Counted from the first letter of the stretch, positions 35,850-48,728 are shown. The stretch is 64,000 nucleotides of DNA from an uncultured Candidatus Poseidoniales archaeon (GCA_964342465.1 CAYFFQ010000004.1:95077-159076), one strand, 5' to 3'. The notes: generated by a model not told the origin, from the sequence alone. Numbers and translations are program-made.

Positions 35850-36812
35850 ATGGCCTTCTCTCTATCTTCAGTCCTTAGTGAACTGGGAATAGAAATTGAA
35901 GAGGTGGGGATGGTCAGCAGGACCCCTGGAATCACCTGCCTCGGCACAATTTCATCACTGTATGATGATACGGTGCGCTGTCCTCTACCAATTGGCTCAT
36001 TCGTTTGGCACGCCGAGGCTGGGTGGGCGGCGATTGACAGGATGGAGATGGAGCGCTGGATGGTTGACGCTCCGGCAGGAAATCACTGGATGATATCGGA
36101 GAGAAAGTTGGTTGAACTGAACCGACTCCCCTCCCGCGAGGGGGTCGTATTGACCCTCTGGTCGTCAGAAACACTCAGCGCTTGGCTGGGCAGGGCCGTG
36201 TTGGAAGGCAAACTACACCTCTCCTGCTCACATGTCGCAGCAACATCGACATTCACATCGATACAGGACCGTGCCGAGTCGTTGAGCACACCGGAACCGA
36301 AAGCCATTGCCCTCAAACCGAGCGTCAACCTTACCGATTGGTTACGGGATATGGGATACGAGTCCCTACCCGTAAAACCACTCCTTCTCGAGGGTAGGAG
36401 ATGGGATGTGTGTGGGGAGTTGGTGGGCCCGGAAGATACTCGTGAGAGCCATTCGTGGTCACTCTTGGATGACCCGTTCCTGAACTCCCTGTCACCCGCA
36501 GAAGATGCTCAGGAGTTGCCATTCGTGCCGCAGTTGGAGCGGTTGCAGCCGCCATTTTGGCGAAGTCAGGGAACTATCCGCTCTGAACTGACGACGGTCT
36601 GTGAGGAGAGGCGCCACTGGAGGGTCAATCAAACATCTGCTGATGGTCTTGTGCAGGGAAGTATTCTGCACTGGTGGCGAATTGACGAAAAAACCGCAGA
36701 GATGACTCACTCGCCCGTACTGATTCCTGCTTGGCAGGTGGAATTTCCCGACAGTGGGGCCATGGTTGTGCATGGACTATGCGGAAAACTTGTCAATCTG
36801 CCCAAATTGTAG
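35850..36812 (+). CDS. Hypothetical protein, Trp-rich, no recognisable motif
   Basis: 320 aa ORF with coding-like composition. Unusually Trp-rich by eye (more than a dozen W). Occupies the position where nusA/rps12/rps7 normally follow rpl30e. Confidence 0.5.
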   Translation: MAFSLSSVLSELGIEIEEVGMVSRTPGITCLGTISSLYDDTVRCPLPIGSFVWHAEAGWAAIDRMEMERWMVDAPAGNHWMISERKLVELNRLPSREGVVLTLWSSETLSAWLGRAVLEGKLHLSCSHVAATSTFTSIQDRAESLSTPEPKAIALKPSVNLTDWLRDMGYESLPVKPLLLEGRRWDVCGELVGPEDTRESHSWSLLDDPFLNSLSPAEDAQELPFVPQLERLQPPFWRSQGTIRSELTTVCEERRHWRVNQTSADGLVQGSILHWWRIDEKTAEMTHSPVLIPAWQVEFPDSGAMVVHGLCGKLVNLPKL

Positions 36813-36864: not shown

Positions 36865-37548
36865 TCAGTCGAACAGAGGTCCCATGACCGTGACACCACC
36901 AGGGCTGATGTCGATGGCTTGTTTTTCCATTGAGTGTCTGATGTGTCGCATCTTTTCAATCTGCATCGTTCTGACGATCTTACCATTTCTTCTGTCCAAG
37001 CCGAGATTGAAAATTGAATCTGCGATGAATCCCTCATTTCCCTCCAACTCTGCGAACTCTCCCGTCTGACGCTCGGTGATGATGAATGAGAAAAGCCCCT
37101 GAGAGCGCAGGAAATCAAAGAAGCCGAACATCTTCTTTCGCATCTCTTCATCGACCTTAGTCAGACTGTAAATGGCACCGAGACTGTCTAGGATGAAGAC
37201 TGTGAACTGCTCACCCCTCTCTTGCTTGAAATGTTGAATCATCCGGCGGGTGAATTTGAGATAGTCCATGGCCTCATTCTCCTTCCTAAGTTCAGTGAGG
37301 TCGGTGATTTGTAGGTTTGGTGGAAGTTCGAGTCCCATGGAATTGCAGGTCTTCAGTAGACTGCCAACCGATTCTTCCACGGTGCAGTAAAGTCCGAACT
37401 CACCTGTTCGCCGCAGATAGTTGGAAATCAGCGACAGAGCGAAACTCGTCTTCATGGAGCCCGGCGGGCCGGTTATCAAACTCAAATATGGTGGCGAAAC
37501 ATCGCTACTCATGACTCGCTCCATGCCTGCAATGCCGCCTATGAACAT
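36865..37548 (-). CDS. KaiC/RecA-superfamily single-domain ATPase (COG0467-like)
   Basis: Walker A ITGPPGSMKTSFAL, Walker B-like FTVFILDSLGAI, and a KaiC-like tail RTMQIEKMRHIRHSMEKQAIDISPGG. 227 aa. Confidence 0.7.
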   Translation of the reverse strand: MFIGGIAGMERVMSSDVSPPYLSLITGPPGSMKTSFALSLISNYLRRTGEFGLYCTVEESVGSLLKTCNSMGLELPPNLQITDLTELRKENEAMDYLKFTRRMIQHFKQERGEQFTVFILDSLGAIYSLTKVDEEMRKKMFGFFDFLRSQGLFSFIITERQTGEFAELEGNEGFIADSIFNLGLDRRNGKIVRTMQIEKMRHIRHSMEKQAIDISPGGVTVMGPLFD

Positions 37549-37737: not shown

Positions 37738-38577
37738 ATGAAGAACACCTTGCAACAGATAGTTTCAACTGCAGATTCTCTGACTTCTCAGCACCAGAAA
37801 ACACGCGATGAATGGAACAAAATCTCAGTTGACCACCGCAACAGAAGAGAACACCTCAACAGTCAGAAGAGAGAGGTCTTCGACGAGATTGAGAGGCAGC
37901 GAAATGTTCGTGACAAGGAGAACGCCAATGTTCGTAAAGCCAAGAAACTGCGCGAGTTCGTCAAGGACAAGTTCCACGCCAAGAGAGACGAGGTCAACCC
38001 CAATAGACAATGGGGGGGGCGCTCGAGGAGGGAGGAATCCCTTCCCGAACTTAAGGAGAAGATTCGTCGTCTTGAAATGGATCACCAGATTGGAAAACTC
38101 AAGGAGAAGGAATTCAACGAGCGTGCAGACAAACTGCGCCGGCGGGTGAGAGAATTGGAAGAGGGAGCCAGCAATTCCTCCAGCGACAGCGACCATCCGG
38201 AGTTGGCAAAACTTGAGGCCGCCTTCGAGGAAGCACACCGCCGAGTCTTGGATGCAGCAGATTCAGCGCAGGCGGCACACGACCTGATGGGTAAACTTCA
38301 GGACGAAACGCGCCGACTCTCAGATGAACATGAGCGCGCTCATGTAGCCTTCATGCGTGCGCGCGATGAATCTGATAAGGAGCACCGCAGATACATCGTC
38401 GCCATGAGATTGGCTTTCAGCGGCAAGAATCTGATACGAGCCATCAAGGAGAGAAGTGATGGAGTGCAACCTGCCAAAGCGGCTGCGACAGCGGAGAGCG
38501 TTGACCTGATGAGTGCGCTACTGTCCGGACAAGCACTCTCAACTGAACAGTTGATGGCGATGCAAAGGCGTGACTGA
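37738..38577 (+). CDS. Archaeal coiled-coil protein (COG1340-like), paralogue 1
   Basis: 279 aa from ATG 37738, preceded by GAGGGTGG. K/R/E-rich heptad-like sequence throughout. It has a central LPELKEKIRRLEMDHQIGKLKEKE block and a C-terminal LLSGQALSTEQLMAM motif shared with the paralogues. Confidence 0.6.
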   Translation: MKNTLQQIVSTADSLTSQHQKTRDEWNKISVDHRNRREHLNSQKREVFDEIERQRNVRDKENANVRKAKKLREFVKDKFHAKRDEVNPNRQWGGRSRREESLPELKEKIRRLEMDHQIGKLKEKEFNERADKLRRRVRELEEGASNSSSDSDHPELAKLEAAFEEAHRRVLDAADSAQAAHDLMGKLQDETRRLSDEHERAHVAFMRARDESDKEHRRYIVAMRLAFSGKNLIRAIKERSDGVQPAKAAATAESVDLMSALLSGQALSTEQLMAMQRRD

Positions 38578-38591
38578 GGTCGGTGTGAGGA

Positions 38592-39749
38592 ATGATTAAC
38601 TCTTCTGATATCGCCGAAATCCTCAATGATTACGACAGGATGAAGTTGAGAATCGGAATGACGGCCAGCCACTCCGCCCTTGACATCTGCGACGGGGCCA
38701 TCGAAGAGGGTTTTCCAACCGTGGCGTATTGCCAAAAGGGTAGAGAAAAGACTTACTCCGAGTACTTCAAGACTGCTCGGAACCAATCTGGAAGAGTGGT
38801 ACGAGGGATGGTTGATAAAGCGATAATTCTTGAAAGATTCGACGATGTTCTTAATCCTGACTTTCAGCAGGGGATGCGGGAGAGAAACGTCGTCTACATC
38901 CCAAATCGCTCATTCACATCCTATTGTGGAATCCAAGCTATCGAGGATGATTTTCGAGTCCCTATGTTCGGCAGTCGCAACATGCTGAGGATGGAAGAGA
39001 GAACGGAGGAGCAGGATTACTACTGGATATTGGACAGAGCAGGACTGCCATATCCCGAAGCCATTGAGAACCCCGAGGACATCGATTGCCTTGTGATAGT
39101 CAAACTTCACCACGCTGAAAAGAAGTTGGAGAGAGGTTTCTTCACCTGCGCTACTAGGGAGGAGTATGAGGAGAAATCACAGTCACTTCTATCTCAAGGT
39201 GTAATCGACCAAGAGAGTCTTGCTGGAGCACGAATCGAGCGATATGTCATCGGGCCGGTCTTCAATCTCAACTTCTTTTACAGCCCTCTCGCAGAGGATA
39301 TGCCCAAACTAGAACTGCTCGGTGTGGATTGGCGATTTGAATCAAGTCTTGATGGTCATGTCAGACTACCGGCACCACAGCAGATGACGATGCCCTTGCA
39401 TCAACAGATTCCTGAAATGACCGTGGTGGGTCACAATACTGCGACCATTCGTGAGAGTCTTCTCGAGAGCGCCTTCGAACTGGGTGAGAAGTTCATCACC
39501 GCCAGTAAGGAACACTATGACCCTGGTATCGTCGGACCGTTTTGCCTCCAGACCTGTATAGACAAGGACATGAACTACTCCATCTATGATGTTGCACCTC
39601 GTGTGGGCGGGGGCACGAATGTCCATGTCAGTGTCGGCCACCCATACGGAAACGCTACATGGCGAAAGCCGATGAGCAGCGGCCGAAGAATCGCCATGGA
39701 GTTGAGAAAGGCGGTTGAACAGGACCGCCTCGATGAAGTCCTGACCTGA
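38592..39749 (+). CDS. purP: 5-formaminoimidazole-4-carboxamide ribonucleotide (FAICAR) synthetase PurP (ATP-grasp)
   Basis: LRIGMTASHSALDICDGAIEEGFPTVAYCQKGREKTYSEYF matches the PurP N-terminal domain. The C-terminal ATP-grasp half ends with GGTNVHVSVGHPYGNATW. Confidence 0.75.
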   Translation: MINSSDIAEILNDYDRMKLRIGMTASHSALDICDGAIEEGFPTVAYCQKGREKTYSEYFKTARNQSGRVVRGMVDKAIILERFDDVLNPDFQQGMRERNVVYIPNRSFTSYCGIQAIEDDFRVPMFGSRNMLRMEERTEEQDYYWILDRAGLPYPEAIENPEDIDCLVIVKLHHAEKKLERGFFTCATREEYEEKSQSLLSQGVIDQESLAGARIERYVIGPVFNLNFFYSPLAEDMPKLELLGVDWRFESSLDGHVRLPAPQQMTMPLHQQIPEMTVVGHNTATIRESLLESAFELGEKFITASKEHYDPGIVGPFCLQTCIDKDMNYSIYDVAPRVGGGTNVHVSVGHPYGNATWRKPMSSGRRIAMELRKAVEQDRLDEVLT

Positions 39750-39840
39750 GCACCTTCTCGCCGCAGCCTTCATGACGGCCCCTGCACCGAATTGGGTGAC
39801 CCTCGGAAGTGGAGGTAGGAAGAAGTCCTATCCCGTCTTT

Positions 39841-40296
39841 TCATCCAAGCCTGTTCAGACGCTCTGTGCAATCAACCATCATAGCCCTCACCAACCCTAG
39901 ATTAGCCCCCGTTTCCAGTTTCAGGATGAGGAAATGAGAGTCGTCGACCACCCTCGCAGTTATCACGCCTCCAGTGGCCAAAATCGTCGCAGAATCAACC
40001 CCCTCTATGGAAAGTTCCTCCATCAATGATTCTCCTCTGCCGATGAGTGAAGGTAGAAGGGATGCTTCTCCCTCAACATATTTGGGTGACCCACCCACGA
40101 TTTCTTCCATGAACCCCTCGCTCGTGGAAAGGGCTACCCACTCGACCCCTTCGACCTGCAACAGTTCGCTGAGGATGGCCCGCTTCACAGAATGATGCGA
40201 GGAAATGAGGTCAATAAACACAATCCCCAAGGGCCACCCAGACATCGTGCTTGCCGTAAGTAGTAATGAGGCACAATACTCAAAGCCGTTAGGCAT
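39841..40296 (-). CDS. Roadblock/LC7 (MglB-like) domain protein
   Basis: LLQVEGVEWVALSTSEGFMEEIVGG...ESLMEELSIEGVDSATILATGGVITARVVDDSHFLILKLETGANLGLVRAMMVDCTERL follows the Roadblock/LC7 consensus, including the ...ANLGLVR... motif. The true start may be the internal MSGW (40245). Confidence 0.6.
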   Translation of the reverse strand: MPNGFEYCASLLLTASTMSGWPLGIVFIDLISSHHSVKRAILSELLQVEGVEWVALSTSEGFMEEIVGGSPKYVEGEASLLPSLIGRGESLMEELSIEGVDSATILATGGVITARVVDDSHFLILKLETGANLGLVRAMMVDCTERLNRLG

Positions 40297-40305
40297 GAAA
40301 ATGGC

Positions 40306-41535
40306 TCAATCATCTCGCTTCTTGTAGGCGCGAGCAGTCCCTCGCCTGACATTGATTCTCAGATTCACACTCCTACGACCCTTCCTTTTCTTCGTCTTCT
40401 TCTCAGGGGTGTCTGCGGCATCCGGCTGATTGAGATGTTCGAGTCCACCAGAATCAAGGATTCTTGAAAGGTCGTCAAGCGTTAGCGCACCGCCGGTGGC
40501 AGCGTGTTTGCGTAATGTAGAGATGCGGATGCGAACTTTCCGCCCTCGTTTCTCATCACCTCTCCTGATGTTCAGGTATGCCTCAAGGCGACCGATCTCT
40601 CGCTTGTGATTCCGCCGCCGTTTGTGTTGTCTGTCCATCGTGGATGCCAATTTAGCAATGCTGTCATTCAGTTTTTCAACTTCCTTGAAATTGATGTCTA
40701 CACCCTCAAGTCGAGTAGATTTTGCGGCGGTGGTCTCTGCCATGTCCTGTTGTTCATCCTTTAGTTCATCCAACTTCTTCACGATTTCCTTCTGTGAGCG
40801 ATAGAGTTCAACCAATGTCTTGTGCAATTGTTCAGATTGTTTCTTCAATTTGTGCATTTCAATTAGTTCAAAGAAGAAAGAAAACCGCTGGATTTCAATC
40901 GGAAGGTGAGGTGCTGAAGTCGGCGGGTCTGGAACCTGAGTCAACTCATGGTAGGTTTTTCGCATCCTCTCTTCAATGACGAAAAGTGGTGGGGAAATCC
41001 GCTCGTTGATGCTGTCCCTTTCCCTCTTTATAGAGCCAATTTGGGAAGAACGTTCTCTCATCTCCCTGAACAGTTTTGTGCGTTCCTTGGACATGCCATG
41101 TGTCATGTTGAGGGCATTCCTCAACGCTTGGACTGTGGAAATCTGATTGCTCCTCTCCTGTTTGTTTGATTCTATCTGACTATCTAGCGCCCGCAGGTCA
41201 GATTTGTGTTCCTTGAGCATCTCTTCGATTTTGTGACTCTCTAATTCTCTGATGTCCGCGAACAGGTCTGCTTTGGACGAATCACGCCCCTGCTGAGGAT
41301 GTGAACCACCATCTCGCCGTTGGCGACCGCCGCCACCACTGCCGCGGCCACCACTCTGCCCACGGCCTCCGCCTCGCTGTTGGCGACCGCCGCGACCACT
41401 GCCGCGGCCACCACTCTGCCCACGGCCTCGACCGCCGCCACCACTCTGCCCACGGCCTCCGCCTCGCTGTTGGCGACCGCCGCCACCGTGACGGCGCCCG
41501 CCTCTCTCGGCCGGTGAATCGGAATCGTCACTCAT
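40306..41535 (-). CDS. Coiled-coil protein (COG1340-like), paralogue 2, with N-terminal RGG/GAR-like repeat region and basic C-terminal tail
   Basis: aa ~10-77 read GGRRHGGGGRQQRGGGRGQSGGGGRGRGQSGGRGSGRGGRQQRGGGRGQSGGRGSGGGGRQRRDGG, followed by ~300 aa of coiled coil. C-terminal GGALTLDDLSRILDSGGL motif and a KKTKKRKGRR tail. The start overlaps the upstream gene stop (41532-41535). Confidence 0.65.
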   Translation of the reverse strand: MSDDSDSPAERGGRRHGGGGRQQRGGGRGQSGGGGRGRGQSGGRGSGRGGRQQRGGGRGQSGGRGSGGGGRQRRDGGSHPQQGRDSSKADLFADIRELESHKIEEMLKEHKSDLRALDSQIESNKQERSNQISTVQALRNALNMTHGMSKERTKLFREMRERSSQIGSIKRERDSINERISPPLFVIEERMRKTYHELTQVPDPPTSAPHLPIEIQRFSFFFELIEMHKLKKQSEQLHKTLVELYRSQKEIVKKLDELKDEQQDMAETTAAKSTRLEGVDINFKEVEKLNDSIAKLASTMDRQHKRRRNHKREIGRLEAYLNIRRGDEKRGRKVRIRISTLRKHAATGGALTLDDLSRILDSGGLEHLNQPDAADTPEKKTKKRKGRRSVNLRINVRRGTARAYKKRDD

Positions 41536-42350
41536 TCCTTCACCTCGGTGTCATCGTCATCTTGCGCCTTGCGCGACATGCTCGATGGTCCGCCGTCTGC
41601 GACTACCCTAGCTGCGGCAAGCAGGTCTCCTGTGCCATCCTTCAGGTCATCGAATCCATTTTCAATGCGATGATTCCAATACTTCAGTATGTTGTCAGAT
41701 ACCTCGAGGAGTGACCGCGCTTTGTTGTATTGGCCCTTGACAACTCTACGCACCTCTTTGTGGTCCTGATATTTCTGGTCCTGACTCTCACTCTCAGTTG
41801 CCAGTTTAATCAAATCGCCATGATGTCTGTCCGCTTCATCAAGCAGTTGCCGATGCTTCGCCCACCCCTCCCGATACTCCTTCAGTTGAGGGTCGTTGTC
41901 CAACCGGTTTGCCACCCATTCCTCATGTTTGCGGGTGAGTTGTTTCATCTCACGAAGCAATTTTCTCTCTTGGTTCAAAGAGTGTGCAGAGGTTTGGATT
42001 CTCGATTCAACATCTGAAATCTTGTTGGCAAGTTTCTCCTTGGCCCAGGCGGGGTTGGGATTCTTCAGGCGTCCTTCGGATATGAGGGTCTCGCGCAGGG
42101 CCGTGAGGCGAGTTCTCAACTCTCGCGCTTCAGTCTGCAAGGCATCCCTCAACTTCTTCAATTCAGCGACTTCCGCAGTCGCTCTGTTGCGAGAAGCGAG
42201 TTCCTGTTCGACTAGAGGTTCAACCGTATCCAATTCGCTTTTTCGCTCTCGGATAATCTCAGGCAGTACCGCATTCAGGTCATGTCTTCTCTCAATTATC
42301 GCTCTCGCGAGAGTCTCCGGCGTCATGACCAGCAGTTTGTCGACTTTCAT
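41532..42350 (-). CDS. Coiled-coil protein (COG1340-like), paralogue 3
   Basis: 272 aa, heptad-rich (ELKKLRDALQTEARELRTRLTALRETL...). Has a central KISDVESRIQTSAHSLNQERKLLREMKQL block. Translationally coupled to paralogue 2. Confidence 0.6.
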   Translation of the reverse strand: MKVDKLLVMTPETLARAIIERRHDLNAVLPEIIRERKSELDTVEPLVEQELASRNRATAEVAELKKLRDALQTEARELRTRLTALRETLISEGRLKNPNPAWAKEKLANKISDVESRIQTSAHSLNQERKLLREMKQLTRKHEEWVANRLDNDPQLKEYREGWAKHRQLLDEADRHHGDLIKLATESESQDQKYQDHKEVRRVVKGQYNKARSLLEVSDNILKYWNHRIENGFDDLKDGTGDLLAAARVVADGGPSSMSRKAQDDDDTEVKE

Positions 42351-42447
42351 GGGTGTTATTGTCCACCAGCCGACTACTCATAAAGCCTGCCTCAAGACAG
42401 TGATTCAACAGTAAAGGTCATTCAACCAATGTGGCTGAGGTGAAGTC

Positions 42448-45168
42448 ATGCGAGGCGGTAGGCGACCATCCCACCCCTCCCTCCACAACCAAGGTATTGG
42501 GATATTCATTCCATTCACCATCCTTTGCATGACCCTTCTCTCGCCACTGGTTAGCCTAGCTGAGGCGTCTGGCGGGGGATTGCTCTTTGATTCTTCGACT
42601 CTCAGCATCCAAGGAAACATGGGTGTTGGTGCTGGCGATGTGAATATCTCAGTCGAGGTAAAATCACACGACATCGGTACGAATGGAAGCATCAATATCT
42701 CTCTGATTGCGGGCGAGAGCGAAGTTGTATCATTCCAGAACAGTAGTCTGAACATGACATTCAACGAGATTTCCGTAATTCACTTCAACATCACTTCACT
42801 CCCAGTGGGCCAATACACCCTCACTGTGCTGTTGTTCGGGGATGTGGGGATTCCGTTTGGCAACAATATGAGTCAGTTGAATCAATTTGTCAAGAGGCTA
42901 GCGCCAGCGGACCCGACACTCCTCGCTTCTTCAACTTGGTCAGCGACTCCAGTGGATGGCGAATCTGCAGAGGCTAGCGGAAATGCTACTTTCAGGGATG
43001 GAGATGCGGGTTGGCTCTTGGTTCCGGTGGAAAACCGCGGCGAGGTGAATTGGTCCGGTCAGATTTCCCTCTCGGTTGATAGCGGCCAACCGATGGGACT
43101 GAACATCACTGTTTCAGCCCTGGCAACATCACAAGCCAATTTCTCCCTTCCACAATTAACGGAATCCACCGCTGTCTCTCTTGAAGTCAATCTCTCTGGA
43201 CAGGTCGCCACACTCAACATCTCTGTAGGGCCACCTCCTCTCCCCACTCTCGTGTTGAGCGGTGACGCCGACTTCTCCTCCCCCTCTCTCGGCGATGAAG
43301 TGAATTGGACCATGAACATCTCAAACAGTGGTGAGAAAGATTGGGACGGCTCTCTTGTCTGCACATTTTCAGGCTCACAAATCGCAGATGAACAGTTCTT
43401 GGTGGGGGTTGGGCAGACACTATCGCATTCCTTCACCCTATCAGTCCGGCCCGGTGAGTTGAGTTGCTGGTTGGCTGCGGGTCAGCGAGTGGCTGCTGAA
43501 TCTCAGTTGTCCCTCAATTATTCCTACGACATGGATGCCGCACACTTTACGCCGGCGAGTTCCATCGGATTGGTGTTTGATGGTGGTGGATTGCATGTTG
43601 GTGACACCTTACATGCATCACTTATCGTCCATAACGGTGGAGATTTGGCTGGAAACGCAAAGTTGGTCATTACAGATTCTGCACAGGTTTCACAAGGAAT
43701 TAGTAGGACATACCAGGTAGGTGAAAGCCTTCAAGTAGAGGCTGAACATCAACTCATCGGTAGCGCTGGAAACAGAACCATACAATGGGCATTGGTGAGT
43801 GAGGATGGATTGGTGGCGGAAAATCTGTCGGGTGAATTGAGCATTGATGTACTCTCACCACAACGATGTGATGTCACAATTTCTAAGGCCGATTGGACGA
43901 ATTCAGGTGGAATCGTTCAAACAGTTGACATCTCACTCTCCGAGGGCGGCCCGAGAGTAGTAAGGGTTCAGTCAGGGATTGTCATATCCGGCGAGAAGAG
44001 CACCGTATTCGATTTCTCGGTGAGCATCCAACCCGGAATCCGCTCTCTCTCTCTGAATCTCGGTCATATTCGAGGGGCTGAGTCGGTATGGGTCAACATC
44101 TCAGAGGATGGTTGGCTAGCGGCGGGAGCCTCAGAATTGAGTGATTCACGCACAATCACGGAACCGACCATCATTCCTTCTGTTGTTCTCGGTGTGGCCA
44201 ACCCGCCTGTTCCGATGAACGGAGAGCCGGTGCGAATCGCCTACACCATCTCCAATGCCGGTAGTGGTACAGCGCAAGTCGGAGTCCTTGTCCTGACCAT
44301 GACTTCCTCAGGAGAAGTTCTTTGGGAAGGTTCAGCACCACTCGTTGAGGCCGACTCCAGTGAGTCGGGGATGATAGAGTTGAGTGAATGGCCTTCTGGA
44401 ACAGTGGTGGATGTTGAACTCGAATGGCGAGTGAACGGTGAGGAAACCGTAGCGATGAAGTCATTCCCATCCAAGAATCAAGACGAAGAAGGGGGGTGGG
44501 ACATCGCTTGGGCCTCTCTTCTCTATGGCGCCGTCGCAGGTATTGTCGTCTCAGCCATCGCTCGATTCGTCTTCGTTTGGAGAGACCAAGACCCAGAGGA
44601 GAAGGCACGGTTCAAGGATGAGAGGAGAGCAGCGAGAGAAGCAGCCAAGAAGAAGGCAGAGGAGCGGATGAATCAGAAACGTGCTTCAACTGAGAAAAGG
44701 GAGGTCGCCTGCCCCGATTGTGAGATGACCCTGCGCGTACCGTCAGATTACTCCGGCCAAGCGAGATGCCCAGCCTGTACGACGGTCTTCGCCGTCGAAG
44801 CGGAGACTGCACCAGAGGCGGTGCAGACAGCGGATTCAAGAGTATCAGCAGGAGATGCGGCGGAAGTTGCGGCCGAGGAAGTCACGGCGCACTCAGATGC
44901 AGAAGAGGATACATCTTCTGCCCCGCAGGGTGAGAGGATGAGACAATCAGAATCTCTTTCCCCTGAGCAGAGCGATGAGAACAAGTCCTATCCCAAGCCG
45001 AGAAAAGAAAGTGCCGGCGACGCAGAGATTCAAAAAAGAGCATTCTCATCGAACGATGAAATACGCTGCCCAGATTGCGGCCAACGGTTAAGAGTGCCCT
45101 ATGAACGGCGACCTATTACAGCAAAATGTGCGAGGTGTGAATGCAAATTCAGCGCAGAGAAGAAATGA
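42448..45168 (+). CDS. Large surface (S-layer-like?) glycoprotein candidate with single TM and cytoplasmic tail carrying two zinc ribbons
   Basis: Signal/anchor (IFIPFTILCMTLLSPLVSLAEA) followed by a ~640 aa ectodomain with at least 18 NxS/T sequons. TM helix (AWASLLYGAVAGIVVSAIARFVFVW), then CPDCEMTLRVP...CPACTTVF and CPDCGQRLRVP...CARCECKF (MJ0042-type zinc-ribbon pattern). Confidence 0.65.
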   Translation: MRGGRRPSHPSLHNQGIGIFIPFTILCMTLLSPLVSLAEASGGGLLFDSSTLSIQGNMGVGAGDVNISVEVKSHDIGTNGSINISLIAGESEVVSFQNSSLNMTFNEISVIHFNITSLPVGQYTLTVLLFGDVGIPFGNNMSQLNQFVKRLAPADPTLLASSTWSATPVDGESAEASGNATFRDGDAGWLLVPVENRGEVNWSGQISLSVDSGQPMGLNITVSALATSQANFSLPQLTESTAVSLEVNLSGQVATLNISVGPPPLPTLVLSGDADFSSPSLGDEVNWTMNISNSGEKDWDGSLVCTFSGSQIADEQFLVGVGQTLSHSFTLSVRPGELSCWLAAGQRVAAESQLSLNYSYDMDAAHFTPASSIGLVFDGGGLHVGDTLHASLIVHNGGDLAGNAKLVITDSAQVSQGISRTYQVGESLQVEAEHQLIGSAGNRTIQWALVSEDGLVAENLSGELSIDVLSPQRCDVTISKADWTNSGGIVQTVDISLSEGGPRVVRVQSGIVISGEKSTVFDFSVSIQPGIRSLSLNLGHIRGAESVWVNISEDGWLAAGASELSDSRTITEPTIIPSVVLGVANPPVPMNGEPVRIAYTISNAGSGTAQVGVLVLTMTSSGEVLWEGSAPLVEADSSESGMIELSEWPSGTVVDVELEWRVNGEETVAMKSFPSKNQDEEGGWDIAWASLLYGAVAGIVVSAIARFVFVWRDQDPEEKARFKDERRAAREAAKKKAEERMNQKRASTEKREVACPDCEMTLRVPSDYSGQARCPACTTVFAVEAETAPEAVQTADSRVSAGDAAEVAAEEVTAHSDAEEDTSSAPQGERMRQSESLSPEQSDENKSYPKPRKESAGDAEIQKRAFSSNDEIRCPDCGQRLRVPYERRPITAKCARCECKFSAEKK

Positions 45169-45177
45169 GGTTTTCAG

Positions 45178-45828
45178 ATGACTGGCCCGATAAGAGAAGA
45201 CCAGGAGATGTACCTCAAGATTCTCTACGAGGCTCACAAACGCGACTCTACACGCCCCATCCGCACTTCCGAGGTGGCTGAGGCGATGGGTGTGACGGCG
45301 GCGAGTGCCAGTGAGATGCTCAAACGATTAGGGGTCAAGGGTTTTGTGGACCATGTTCCCTACAAAGGGGTCACCCTCAATGCACAGGGAGTGGTGGCAG
45401 CAAGCCGGGTGAAGAGACGAGAGGCTCTTCTAGAGATTTTCCTTGAGAGGGTACTTCATTTCCAAGGCGATATCAATGATGCTGCGTGCAGGTTGGAACA
45501 CGCCTTGACAGATGACCTTGAATTGGCTATAGACCGTATTCTTGGATTCCCTGACCAGGCGCTTGACGGTTCCCCCTTCCCCCCTCGCACCCACAATGCA
45601 TCTAGCCGAAGTGGGATTCGCTTGATGGCATTGGAAATGCTTCCCGAGGGGACTGTCGGCATTGTGGAACTGATAGCCCTCGATGGGGCCGGTCGTGATT
45701 CACTCTCCCAACTTGGGTTAGAGGTTGGTGCGAGGATTCTACGAACGGCTGATGGGTTGTTGATAGATGGGAGTCACCATCTCGTCTCGCAATCACTTCT
45801 CGAACATATCCTAGTTCAGCCCCAGTGA
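45178..45828 (+). CDS. DtxR/MntR-family metal-dependent transcriptional repressor with C-terminal FeoA/SH3-like domain
   Basis: EMYLKILYEAH...IRTSEVAEAMGVTAASASEMLKRLGVKGFV (wHTH), a RREALLEIFLERVL dimerisation helix, and C-terminal LPEGTVGIVELIA. Confidence 0.8.
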   Translation: MTGPIREDQEMYLKILYEAHKRDSTRPIRTSEVAEAMGVTAASASEMLKRLGVKGFVDHVPYKGVTLNAQGVVAASRVKRREALLEIFLERVLHFQGDINDAACRLEHALTDDLELAIDRILGFPDQALDGSPFPPRTHNASSRSGIRLMALEMLPEGTVGIVELIALDGAGRDSLSQLGLEVGARILRTADGLLIDGSHHLVSQSLLEHILVQPQ

Positions 45829-45868
45829 GGGGGTGTGGGTCGGTTGTCGGCCATCAGAGCGACCATAC

Positions 45869-45985
45869 TCGCAAGCAATCTTGGCGAATGGAAACCGAGT
45901 TCGCCAGCAATCTTGTCGACGGGAAACTGAGTTCGCCAGCAATCTTGTCGACGGGAAACCGAGTTCGCCAGCAATCTTGTCGACG
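45869..45985. repeat. Tandem repeat, 32 bp unit x ~3.7
   Basis: TCGCCAGCAATCTTGTCGACGGGAAACCGAGT at 45901 and 45933, a diverged copy at 45869 and a truncated copy at 45965. Each unit contains a SalI-like GTCGAC palindrome. Confidence 0.9.
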
Positions 45986-46039
45986 ACTGCGAAATGCGGT
46001 GATAGGACCGTGAGTGACGGACTCACTCGTCTCAATACC

Positions 46040-46305
46040 GATTGTTTGCGGCCAGTGAGGTGGAGTGCGTTATTCTTGCAGCGGACGACAGCGAGGGTGC
46101 GATTGTTTGTGGCCTCAGAGGTGGAGTGCGTTATTCTTGCAGCGGAAGACAGCGAGGGTGCGATTGTTTGTGTCCTCAGAGGTGGAGTGCGTAATTCTTA
46201 CAGCGGACGACAGCGAGGGTGCGATTGTTTGCGGCCTCAGAGGTGGAGTGCGTAATTCTTACAGCGGACGACAGCGAGGGTGCGATGGTTCACCCGCAGT
46301 GAGGT
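46040..46305. repeat. Tandem repeat, 61 bp unit x ~4.3
   Basis: GATTGTTTGCGGCC(A/T)(G/C)(T/A)GAGGTGGAGTGCGT(T/A)ATTCTT(G/A)CAGCGGACGACAGCGAGGGTGC starts at 46040, 46101, 46162 and 46223, with a degenerate copy at 46284. Ends ~50 nt before the paralogue-4 start. Confidence 0.9.
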
Positions 46306-46354
46306 GCAATTCCATAAGTCGCCTTGATATGGGGGGGGTGGCTCGGCGTGTGCG

Positions 46355-47368
46355 ATGGCAACGGTGGATGAGCAGCGAGACCCAGTTGCGGAGGCGGTGA
46401 GAGAGCGACTTTCGTCGATGGAAGCGAAGATGCGGAAATTGAGCGACCAACGCAGAGCCCACAACGATTCTGCTCGTGCCAACGCCGATAAGCGCAACGC
46501 GATTCAAGCGCAGTACAACGAACTGAAGGATGTCATCAAAGAGATACTGGAGTCTCAGAAAGAGGTCCGTCTTAGGGCGAAAGTGCACCAAGCGCGAAGA
46601 GATGCCATTCAGGAGCAATTGCGCGGCATGTTCGCGAGGTCAAAGGAAGCAAAGGGAAACCGCAAGAAGTCGGTGGTTTTGCAACTTTCTGAAAACCGAG
46701 CCGAAGTAGAAAGGCTGGAAAACAGATTGGAGCGTGATGGAAATGTCTCCCTCGATGCAGAGAAGGGAATTCACCGCCGCCTCAAGACTCTAAGGTCTGA
46801 GATAGCGGTTCTTGAACCTCAAGTGGAGGAAGAGGTCAGAATCAAAATTGACCTTGATGACATGGAGGGCTCGATTGAACTTCTGAGGGTCGAGGCTGAT
46901 GCAGAACATAAACTGATGGTGGAAGCACACGCTGAAGCGGACAAAATCTGGGAAGAAATCAAACCCAAGTTCGATGAGAGGGATTTTCTTAAGGCGGAGG
47001 GGGACAGGCTTCACAACCTCTTCGTTAAACACAGAGAAGAGGCCAATTCCGTCCATCAACAGATTCAGGAGTTGGCCGACCAAGTGACCGAGGCTCGCAA
47101 CGAACTGCAGGCGATGAGAGAGGAGAGAGAATCGTGGATAGTTGAACACAACAAGTCGGTTGAGGAATCCACTTCTACACCTAAGGATGATGAAGAACTC
47201 GCAGAAAATCTGGTCCATGGACTTCTCGGGTCAGGTAGTCTATCGCTGGGGGGGTCTACTCTTTCCTCAAATACTGTCCGTGCCACCAAGAAAAAGCGGC
47301 GCAGAACCCAATACAAACCGACTGGTCCTCGCCGTGGTGGCAGAGCGGCGAGAGAGAATAACGAATAG
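46355..47368 (+). CDS. Coiled-coil protein (COG1340-like), paralogue 4, basic C-terminal tail
   Basis: 337 aa. LSENRAEVERLENRLERDGNVSLDAEKGIHRRLKTLRSEI central block, long heptad regions, C-terminal LLGSGSLSLGG motif and a KKKRRRTQYKPTGPRRGGR tail. Confidence 0.65.
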   Translation: MATVDEQRDPVAEAVRERLSSMEAKMRKLSDQRRAHNDSARANADKRNAIQAQYNELKDVIKEILESQKEVRLRAKVHQARRDAIQEQLRGMFARSKEAKGNRKKSVVLQLSENRAEVERLENRLERDGNVSLDAEKGIHRRLKTLRSEIAVLEPQVEEEVRIKIDLDDMEGSIELLRVEADAEHKLMVEAHAEADKIWEEIKPKFDERDFLKAEGDRLHNLFVKHREEANSVHQQIQELADQVTEARNELQAMREERESWIVEHNKSVEESTSTPKDDEELAENLVHGLLGSGSLSLGGSTLSSNTVRATKKKRRRTQYKPTGPRRGGRAARENNE

Positions 47369-47507: not shown

Positions 47508-48728
47508 TCAAGTCCACTGCTCAATTCTCGTCTGGCGGCTCCTTGTATTGAACCAGCAACCCCTAAGTTTGTTCGGCTGAGAAATCTTCGGAGCGACATG
47601 GTCTATGGCTGAAGAAAGGTTATCGAAAACCAAAGGCTTCTGTTTCATCGCTTCACGCATCGTCTCCCTGATGAGCCAGACACCGACAGGAGCCCAATAT
47701 CCTTCACCTATATCGCGCCAGACAAGGGCAGCCGCTGAACGTCTCCTTCTTTCGAGATTTTCCAGTACGGCGAGTCGTGCAGAATAGTAGGCGCCGGTGA
47801 TGTTGCTCGCGTACGAAGACCTCGGTACATCTTCCTCCCAATCCTCCAAGACCCTCTCATCCTTGCTCCACAGAGAGCCCCCCATCCACACTTCCAACAT
47901 CTGAAACGCCCAGTATTCCGGTGTCAGAATCACTTGGAAATGGTTGTCGAGATAGTCCGCTTGGTAGACCTCAACCTTGTCTATGGTGGGGAAGTCTCGC
48001 ACTTTACTCCAGATTTGTTTTCCGAGCATATCATCCACAGCAGTGATTGACCACCTCGTTGGAACCATACGTCGGCGACTTCTCTGCCCTAACAATCCAG
48101 CCGACAAGAGGCGACTGATATGGGTTTCACCGATGTTAGAGGTGGACAATTCTGAGATGGCAGTGGTGGCGAGAAGATGGGTTTCATCGACAACTCTGTC
48201 CACTTTTTTCGGGATGAATGGGTTGCTGGTGATGTCGGCTCGGACGACCTCACCGCTCGCTGCGTGTGGCCTTGCTAGCGAATCAAAGGTCGGTGTGCCG
48301 GTGAGTCGCAGCGGTTGTGAGAATTGCATTTCCACATCGACATCCTTGGCAGCCATCGCAATTTCCTGAGTGGTGGCCACTACTCGGGAAGGTGACGAAG
48401 CATCCTTCACTGAAACTTCGCTTCGTCCACGCACCAGATTGGCATGGCGGGCTGCGACAACCTCCAATGGTTGTCCGAACAAATCGGCGGGGTCTGCAGG
48501 CGACACCCCCTCCTCTCCCTGCATGGGGGGGTTGGCCTGAGGTCCGATGGAAACCTTGGGGTAGCCATATCTTCCCACGAAAAGAGACGGTGGGCTTGTG
48601 CCGTGAAAGGATTCAATCTGTAGGGCCGAGGAATTCGGCAACTGCCTTCTGACTTCAGCAAGGAGTGGGCACGGCTGAATACCACACATCGACCGCACAC
48701 CGCGACAGTCGAGACACTCGGGGAACAT
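47508..48728 (-). CDS. nreA: Archaeal DNA repair protein NreA (Nre family)
   Basis: The N-terminal Cys-rich MFPECLDCRGVRSMCGIQPCPLL is typical of Nre proteins. 406 aa, with C-terminal GYWAPVGVWLIRE. Confidence 0.65.
   Translation of the reverse strand: MFPECLDCRGVRSMCGIQPCPLLAEVRRQLPNSSALQIESFHGTSPPSLFVGRYGYPKVSIGPQANPPMQGEEGVSPADPADLFGQPLEVVAARHANLVRGRSEVSVKDASSPSRVVATTQEIAMAAKDVDVEMQFSQPLRLTGTPTFDSLARPHAASGEVVRADITSNPFIPKKVDRVVDETHLLATTAISELSTSNIGETHISRLLSAGLLGQRSRRRMVPTRWSITAVDDMLGKQIWSKVRDFPTIDKVEVYQADYLDNHFQVILTPEYWAFQMLEVWMGGSLWSKDERVLEDWEEDVPRSSYASNITGAYYSARLAVLENLERRRRSAAALVWRDIGEGYWAPVGVWLIRETMREAMKQKPLVFDNLSSAIDHVAPKISQPNKLRGCWFNTRSRQTRIEQWT

Follow-up and report, generated by a model that had tools for sequence, protein, structure and literature searches.

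The closest described counterparts of the genes treated here are the coiled-coil proteins of the archaeal family DUF7121/COG1340. This family is very probably the same as arCOG01159 (representative TK2157), as judged from a shared description and from names given by the Joint Genome Institute (JGI). arCOG01159 ranks first among uncharacterised archaeal proteins, with presence in 492 of 524 genomes, and has been described as a coiled-coil protein linked to the phosphoserine phosphatase SerB (PMC6393860, Makarova, Wolf, Koonin). Transposon insertion in TK2157 is viable (PMC6393311), and TK2157 was detected in chromosomes isolated from Thermococcus kodakarensis, a preparation in which RNA polymerase and ribosomal proteins abound (PMC7325993). 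A literature search on COG1340, DUF7121, arCOG01159, TK2157 and archaeal DUF342 found no functional study. An earlier note, made from the sequence alone, had drawn attention to four open reading frames (ORFs) within 10 kb of a 64,000-nucleotide stretch of an uncultured Candidatus Poseidoniales (Marine Group II) archaeon (GCA_964342465.1 CAYFFQ010000004.1:95077-159076; the whole stretch is called the window below), and had read them as COG1340-like paralogues, speculatively of a filament- or scaffold-forming system of cytoskeletal, chromatin or ribosome-associated nature. These ORFs are designated A, B, C and D (Table 1). The cluster represents a pan-archaeal family, known but unstudied, that has expanded and diversified in this lineage. 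The whole account proposed here, in which A-D are paralogues, fold as hairpin rods and serve as an adaptor or scaffold that binds nucleic acid, most likely RNA, is held at a probability of roughly 0.5.

Orthologues of A-D were gathered from 60 relatives and one profile was built per gene; the 61 Poseidoniales genomes counted in all fall into 19 genera and three families (f1, f2 and f3, the last being the sister family that carries nucleotidyltransferase fusions). All four ORFs are present where they had been reported, and the chosen starts are backed by the orthologue alignments. BLASTP among A-D gave no significant match, the best being a collinear alignment of A and D over 219 amino acids (aa) at E 0.25, and profiles were therefore needed. 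Against the Pfam gathering cut-off for DUF7121 (PF23435, 29 bits), A scores 50.4 bits and D 21.5 bits, the latter below it, and the window copies of B and C have generic coiled-coil Pfam matches only. Among orthologues, DUF7121 is matched by 8 of 10 D proteins (E <= 0.01, best 6.4e-7), 5 of 14 C proteins and none of 15 B proteins.

Profiles were aligned pairwise with hhalign, using two controls that keep composition and heptad periodicity: reversed profiles, and 40 heptad-block shuffles per pair, from which z was taken as the number of standard deviations of the observed score above the shuffle mean. The pairs scored as follows: A-D, 98.4% (E 4e-15, 259 columns, z 18); A-C, 96.7% (E 3e-10, 158 columns, z 12); B-D, 94.4% (E 9e-8, 277 columns, z 13); C-D, 94.0% (E 1e-7, 177 columns, z 9.9); A-B, 91.8% (E 7e-7, 236 columns, z 4.7); and B-C, 30% (E 6e-4, 193 columns, z 2.9). 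Reversed-profile controls gave P >= 0.12 throughout. Since the scores of the first five pairs lie far above both controls, the likeness is more than coiled-coil composition. The alignments are collinear, pairing N-helix with N-helix (with repeated 'RD..N' positions), tip block with tip block and His-rich return helix with return helix, and the C-terminal motifs of A and D are paired as well. The hidden Markov model (HMM) of the A family was also searched, with filters off, against the complete set of 9,727 ORFs in the genome. It matched A itself, a further, fifth copy (contig C43; 1e-20), C (7e-7) and D (2e-6). The match after these, at E 0.76, is noise, and the model did not pick up SMC, Rad50 or other coiled-coil proteins among these ORFs.

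The B profile, searched against 1.84 billion representative proteins, gave only 156 matches, and the B family is therefore narrow. The end of the match list holds ~300-aa proteins aligned nearly full length (from a Thermoplasmata archaeon, an Altiarchaeales archaeon and an uncultured archaeon). In three of nine such B-like archaeal proteins DUF7121 is the best or second-best Pfam match, below the cut-off, and a profile of the nine gave 99.3% with B (E 2e-20), 97.3% with D, 96.7% with A and 78% with C, the reversed controls failing. On this profile evidence B is closest to the second, ~300-aa subtype of other archaea, which is strong in some Thermoplasmatota families only. Placing A-D in one archaeal coiled-coil superfamily, DUF7121/COG1340, as ancient and strongly diverged paralogues, is strongly backed for A, C and D and well backed for B, in the latter case by profiles only. 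The earlier proposal of COG1340-like paralogy is borne out by the Pfam match, the JGI COG1340 label and the controlled profile-profile comparisons. That A-D are instead unrelated genes sharing generic coiled-coil composition could appeal to the BLASTP result, to the B orthologues lacking a DUF7121 match and to the weak B-C link; it runs against both sets of controls, against an A HMM that is specific within the genome and draws in neither SMC nor Rad50, and against collinear motifs and the bridge through the ~300-aa subtype. Such an origin is very improbable for the set and, by these comparisons, already largely refuted for A, C and D, so that the purely compositional likeness which the earlier note had considered as an outcome of a pairwise profile comparison was not what the comparison gave.

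A is the canonical copy, because full-length orthologues with the same ending occur across Thermoplasmatota: its profile (287 positions), searched against 121 genomes of the phylum, found a ~290-aa orthologue covering positions 1-286, C-terminal motif included, in 120. These orthologues end in GEKLSTEDLMTLQK, the counterpart in A being SGQALSTEQLMAMQR. Members of the A cluster carry one of two JGI names: 'uncharacterized coiled-coil DUF342 family protein', which is that of COG1340, or 'phosphoserine phosphatase', which is wrong. Long open frames at A-type genes in other Thermoplasmatota revealed no fusions other than low-complexity acidic or PAKE-rich N-terminal extensions. C and D could be traced within Poseidoniales only. 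The likeness to DUF7121/COG1340 thus comprises the score of A above the cut-off, its label and its phylum-wide orthologue, C, D and the fifth copy as detectable relatives, a length of ~280-340 aa, the hairpin plan and a C-terminal G-x-x-LS-x-E/D-E/D-L motif. In contrast to the family at large, four copies are clustered here and one lies elsewhere, whereas most sampled archaeal genomes outside the order hold 1-3 copies, unlinked and, in those compared by position, on different contigs. The window copies of B, C and D are also too diverged for the Pfam cut-off, B has an RGG-like head (a nucleotidyltransferase head in f3), the tails of B and D are long and basic, and the tip of C is acidic.

The four genes are near single-copy in the 61 genomes (A and D in 59 each, B in 58, C in 52) and stay within about 6-15 kb of one another across the three families, with D 6-13 kb from A in nearly all genomes. 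Twenty loci of 15-20 kb each were compared for synteny. The core order is kept, with C-B on one strand facing the genes of a 906-aa membrane protein and a DtxR-type regulator, and A close by; D is placed after DtxR, the order membrane protein-DtxR-D being conserved, and the rpoA''-L30e genes lie near the cluster in the compared loci. C, B and A are directly adjacent in some genera (L042, L046, L047 and L054), and in others, the window included, a Roadblock-like gene, a KaiC-like ATPase gene and PurP are interleaved among them. A-D have been together since the ancestor of the order, in the layout C-B-(Roadblock)-(KaiC)-A facing membrane protein-DtxR-D, and the clustering described from the window holds in the relatives examined, where the genes are not scattered. 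Outside the order, tblastn with the window proteins found none of KaiC, Roadblock, B, C or D beside an A-type gene. The ATGA-type overlap through which C and B had been described as coupled is present in the sequence, and the junction recurs in 9 of 14 diverse genomes. In two loci of one f3 genus (g16; L038 and L039) C is missing, about 600 bp separate the membrane-protein gene from B, and B is a very diverged protein of 274-285 aa without the nucleotidyltransferase head. C and B seem to have decayed there in a correlated way, and loss of C together with a shortened and diverged B in part of one genus gives a small hint of B-C coupling.

AlphaFold2 (AF2) models of A and B were built from their family alignments. 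The model of A (predicted local distance difference test, pLDDT, 81.7) has helices at residues 2-86, 102-117, 123-145 and 154-240, with low-confidence short helices over the terminal motif. That of B (pLDDT 73.8 overall, >90 in the core) has helices at residues 100-179, 184-199, 211-272 and 283-329 followed by three short C-terminal helices, residues 1-88 (G/R-rich) and 372-409 (the basic tail) being disordered. Both proteins are predicted to be rods of ~12 nm consisting of two antiparallel helices of ~80 residues, a short helical tip and a small C-terminal motif, the hairpin packing being suggested by the models taken with their structural analogues; C and D are predicted from profile alignment to follow the same plan. 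The one architecture that the earlier note had ascribed to all four ORFs is borne out by the collinear hhalign blocks and by the same order of elements in the two models. The C-terminal motif (consensus G-x-x-L-S/T-x-D/E-D/E-L) is clear as G..LS..L in A, B and D and degenerate in C, as had been described for three of the ORFs; the basic tail said to follow it is found in B and D only, A ending at the motif. Average net charge over the last 30 residues is +10 for B and +8.6 for D and -2.8 for the tip of C, which reads GEEE in most C orthologues; A has no charged tail. The RGG-like disordered head of B takes up about residues 10-85 (window 41281-41508), and its DNA (window 41313-41487) consists of 60-bp and 30-bp tandem repeats with 96% matches. 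Head length and sequence vary widely among same-genus orthologues, and G/R- or K/R-rich heads recur across the B family.

Foldseek searches of PDB with the A and B models returned the same analogues (SMC and Smc5/6 arm fragments, SH3BP5, CT398 and chemoreceptors), with no match at E <= 0.001 for either model. Sequence searches of PDB with the A profile and the ~300-aa subtype profile found generic helical proteins only (TatB, ApoA-I, chemoreceptors) and no relative with a solved structure. The antiparallel arms of SMC, Rad50 and MukB and the hairpin adaptors SH3BP5 and CT398 are the best structural analogues, being long two-helix rods like those of the A and B models; unlike SMC, Rad50 and MukB, A-D have no ATPase head, hinge or zinc hook, and the relation is one of analogy, not of membership. 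Candidate families were also considered and rejected. Matches to the coiled-coil parts of SMC/Rad50 families reach 14-29 bits against cut-offs of 300-1087, and A-D are proteins of 272-409 aa without Walker motifs. The N-terminal arm of seryl-tRNA synthetase (PF02403) scores 20.3 bits in B against a cut-off of 28.2, and 17-22 bits at most in other members. Among anti-phage defence systems (PADLOC), only weak coiled-coil matches to JetC, LmuB and DruC were obtained (E 1.7e-6 to 0.009), and A-D are core, syntenic genes across the order.

In family f3 the syntenic B orthologues are 690-733 aa long and carry N-terminal MTPAP-like_central (PF22600, 100-120 bits) and PAP_assoc (PF03828) domains, the pair that makes up the Cid1/TUTase-type RNA 3'-tailing fold. 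The fusion domain passes its Pfam cut-off in 18 of 22 f3 genomes, in 690-733-aa ORFs or one contig-end fragment (examples are locus L040, G038:C1, 17162-~19000, and proteins P0060, P0063 and P0090); a full match of the nucleotidyltransferase domain was found neither elsewhere in those 18 genomes nor in f1 and f2. The f3 proteins resemble Cid1/TUTase and mitochondrial poly(A) polymerase enzymes in this N-terminal pair and in a catalytic GS...DxD, which most of them keep intact and which is degenerate in P0056, P0059 and P0062; in contrast, the window genome and all of its family lack the domain, and B there has the RGG-like segment. The fifth copy lies outside the window (contig C43:1535-2965, minus strand) and encodes a protein of 476 aa in which an acidic linker joins an NYN/Zc3h12a-like RNase domain to a DUF7121 coiled coil (48.7 bits) most like that of A. 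Its NYN domain scores 16.6 bits, and 22 bits in stand-alone relatives of ~300 aa, against a cut-off of 23. No full-length orthologue of this fusion was found in the 60 relatives, and it is therefore treated as a weak, lineage-specific lead.

Among the natures considered in the earlier note, the nucleic-acid-linked ones (chromatin or ribosome-associated) fit better, because of the RGG head, the basic tails, the f3 fusion to an RNA-tailing domain, the NYN-RNase-like fifth copy and the chromosome and ribosome fraction in which TK2157 was detected. These indirect leads suggest a nucleic-acid-linked adaptor or scaffold, probably for RNA, in preference to a cytoskeleton. The rods of A-D would act together, probably as hetero-oligomers, with C-B as the best candidate pair because the two genes are translationally coupled, the tip of C is acidic and the tail of B basic. 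The assembly would be a nucleic-acid-binding adaptor or scaffold, most likely for RNA, that brings enzymes or partners to RNA or ribonucleoprotein substrates. Contact with RNA may be made by B, through its RGG head and basic tail; in f3 the same position is taken by the Cid1/TUTase-type RNA 3'-tailing domain.

Several points weigh against this proposal. B is joined to DUF7121 by profile-profile links alone, with a weak B-C pair (30%, z 2.9), and coiled coils are prone to error in profile methods, though the controls speak against an artefact. The equation of DUF7121 with arCOG01159/TK2157 was made from descriptions and JGI names, and mass spectrometry of a chromosome fraction is unspecific. 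The nucleotidyltransferase fusion is limited to f3, absent from the window genome and degenerate in some lineages; the NYN fusion is unique to the window assembly and sits on a 3-kb contig, with an RNase domain just below cut-off. The conserved neighbours (membrane protein, DtxR, KaiC and Roadblock) give no pointer to RNA themselves.

The surroundings of the four genes are as follows (Table 1). The KaiC-like ATPase of the earlier note is confirmed by its Pfam score; the gene adjoins A in most f1 genomes and one f3 genome and is absent from the cluster in several genera. By eye, a KaiC/RecA-like ORF with a Walker A motif was seen two genes from the A-type gene in L167, one of two distant Thermoplasmatota loci. 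The Roadblock/LC7 label is supported by orthologues, Robl_LC7 being the top or only match in 8 of 9 and covering positions 3-89 of 91 (best score 23.1 bits against a cut-off of 23, which one orthologue reaches), but not by the window copy, which has no Pfam match. These orthologues are about 115 aa long and align from about residue 37, so that the true start is probably downstream of the listed ATG. The 'giant surface protein' is large but, at 906 aa, not giant. Its Pfam matches are weak ones to CARDB, DUF11 and zinc-ribbon families; the single late transmembrane segment and the CxxC pairs are readings of the translated sequence, and the cytoplasmic tail is rich in K, R and E.

The 526-bp spacer between DtxR and D (45829-46354) consists almost wholly of tandem arrays. 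In same-genus relatives the gap is about 58 bp, which marks the arrays as inserted recently, and the insertion may have broken a coupling of D to the genes upstream. Beyond D lies an NreA-like DNA repair gene, placed between D and an 80-aa ORF that follows D directly in five same-genus loci; no NreA match was obtained in the 20 loci, and the gene looks like a lineage-specific insertion. A Trp-rich protein encoded between L30e and the cluster is conserved in most of family f1 at 25-55% identity. PurP adjoins the A-type gene here and across the order, and in the two distant Thermoplasmatota loci (L161, 8173-9537, and L167, 10498-11844) the A-type gene adjoins an ORF with an N-terminus that resembles, by eye, adenylosuccinate lyase (PurB). 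The two different purine-pathway neighbours may be due to chance or be an old gene-order remnant. A scan for bacterial-type promoters and terminators gave fewer sites than shuffled sequence, its models being bacterial and uninformative for an archaeon.

Table 1. Features of the cluster and its surroundings, in window coordinates
Feature	Coordinates	Strand	Remarks
Trp-rich protein	35850-36812	+	320 aa; no Pfam or PADLOC match
KaiC-like ATPase (RecA superfamily), single-domain	36865-37548	-	divergent from A; PF06745 103.7 bits
Paralogue A	37738-38577	+	279 aa; canonical DUF7121/COG1340 orthologue; predicted helical hairpin, family hallmark DLMSALLSGQALSTEQLMAMQR at end
PurP	38592-39749	+	
Roadblock/LC7-like	39841-40296	-	151 aa as listed; in many of the order's genomes placed between B and KaiC/A
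Paralogue B	40306-41535	-	409 aa; G/R-rich head, predicted hairpin core, GGALTLDDLSRILDSGGL motif, very basic tail
ATGA overlap, C stop codon/B start codon	41532-41535	-	4 nt, read directly from the sequence
Paralogue C	41532-42350	-	272 aa; most diverged copy; conserved N-terminal LLxxTPExLA; acidic C-terminal tip
Membrane protein	42448-45168	+	906 aa; divergent from C across the order; Ig/CARDB-like ectodomain, late transmembrane segment, two zinc ribbons
DtxR/iron-dependent repressor family regulator	45178-45828	+	PF01325 58 bits, PF02742 52.5 bits; between membrane protein and D
Two tandem arrays	45869-46290		32 bp x 3.7 and 61 bp x 4.1
Paralogue D	46355-47368	+	337 aa; predicted hairpin core, LLGSGSLSLGG motif, basic tail
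NreA-like DNA repair gene	47508-48728	-	NF041387 260 bits

These neighbours allow other functional readings. As an envelope-linked or membrane-proximal scaffold controlled by the DtxR-type regulator, the rods might organise something at the membrane and dock for this on the zinc-ribbon cytoplasmic tail of the 906-aa protein. The divergent layout of membrane protein-DtxR-D and C-B-A, which holds in all three families, and a membrane protein with a K/R/E-rich cytoplasmic tail and two zinc ribbons speak for such a scaffold. Elsewhere in Thermoplasmatota, however, the canonical A-type gene has no such neighbour, and none of A-D has an element that binds or spans the membrane; nucleic-acid binding would suit zinc ribbons and basic tails equally, and synteny alone is no proof of interaction, so that a role at the envelope is rather unlikely. 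The rods could also be the output or substrate of a signalling pair of the KaiC and Roadblock proteins, being assembled, remodelled or phosphorylated by the KaiC-like ATPase with Roadblock as adaptor. A well-scoring KaiC gene (103.7 bits) and a Roadblock-like gene do lie inside the cluster here and in many relatives, but several genera with C-B-A adjacent have neither in the locus, tblastn with the window KaiC gave no match beside A-type genes in other Thermoplasmatota, and no small GTPase partner for Roadblock was seen; we regard this as unlikely.

The cytoskeletal option of the earlier note, co-polymerisation of the paralogues into intermediate-filament-like fibres, draws on heptad-rich sequences, on several co-conserved paralogues and on weak matches to crescentin, lamin and tropomyosin profiles. 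These family matches are far below cut-off and generic (Rod_CreS at E 0.0099 in 1 of 14 C orthologues), and the conserved polar His, Arg and Asp positions and the terminal motifs differ from those of filament rods. The AF2 monomers are intramolecular antiparallel hairpins of ~12 nm, with about 80 residues per arm, and not long parallel dimers, and polymerisation is shown by none of the tests made; the filament is accordingly quite improbable, and the earlier idea of a filament or cytoskeletal scaffold finds no support. The RNA-linked adaptor, preferred over these options, can be carried one step further. DUF7121/COG1340 rods might be the organising subunits of an unrecognised archaeal assembly for RNA processing or RNA 3'-tailing and decay, with a role like that of a degradosome or TRAMP scaffold, diversified into a four-subunit hetero-oligomer in Poseidoniales; B would then either bear a eukaryote-type Cid1/TUTase enzyme (f3) or recruit RNA by its RGG head (the family of the window). 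This extension is tentative and, on balance, doubtful.

Marine Group II archaea, still uncultured, rank with the most abundant archaea in the surface ocean. The cluster offers handles on the function of the family, namely a translationally coupled pair whose charged ends complement each other, an RGG head, and natural fusions in which an RNA-tailing enzyme or an RNase-like domain is joined on, and these move the prior from 'cytoskeleton' to 'RNA-linked adaptor'. The canonical A-type copy is also carried by tractable archaea, in which the key experiments are therefore feasible; Haloferax volcanii has a DUF7121 match. If the rods do organise an RNA-processing assembly, the most conserved uncharacterised protein family of the archaea would gain a function.

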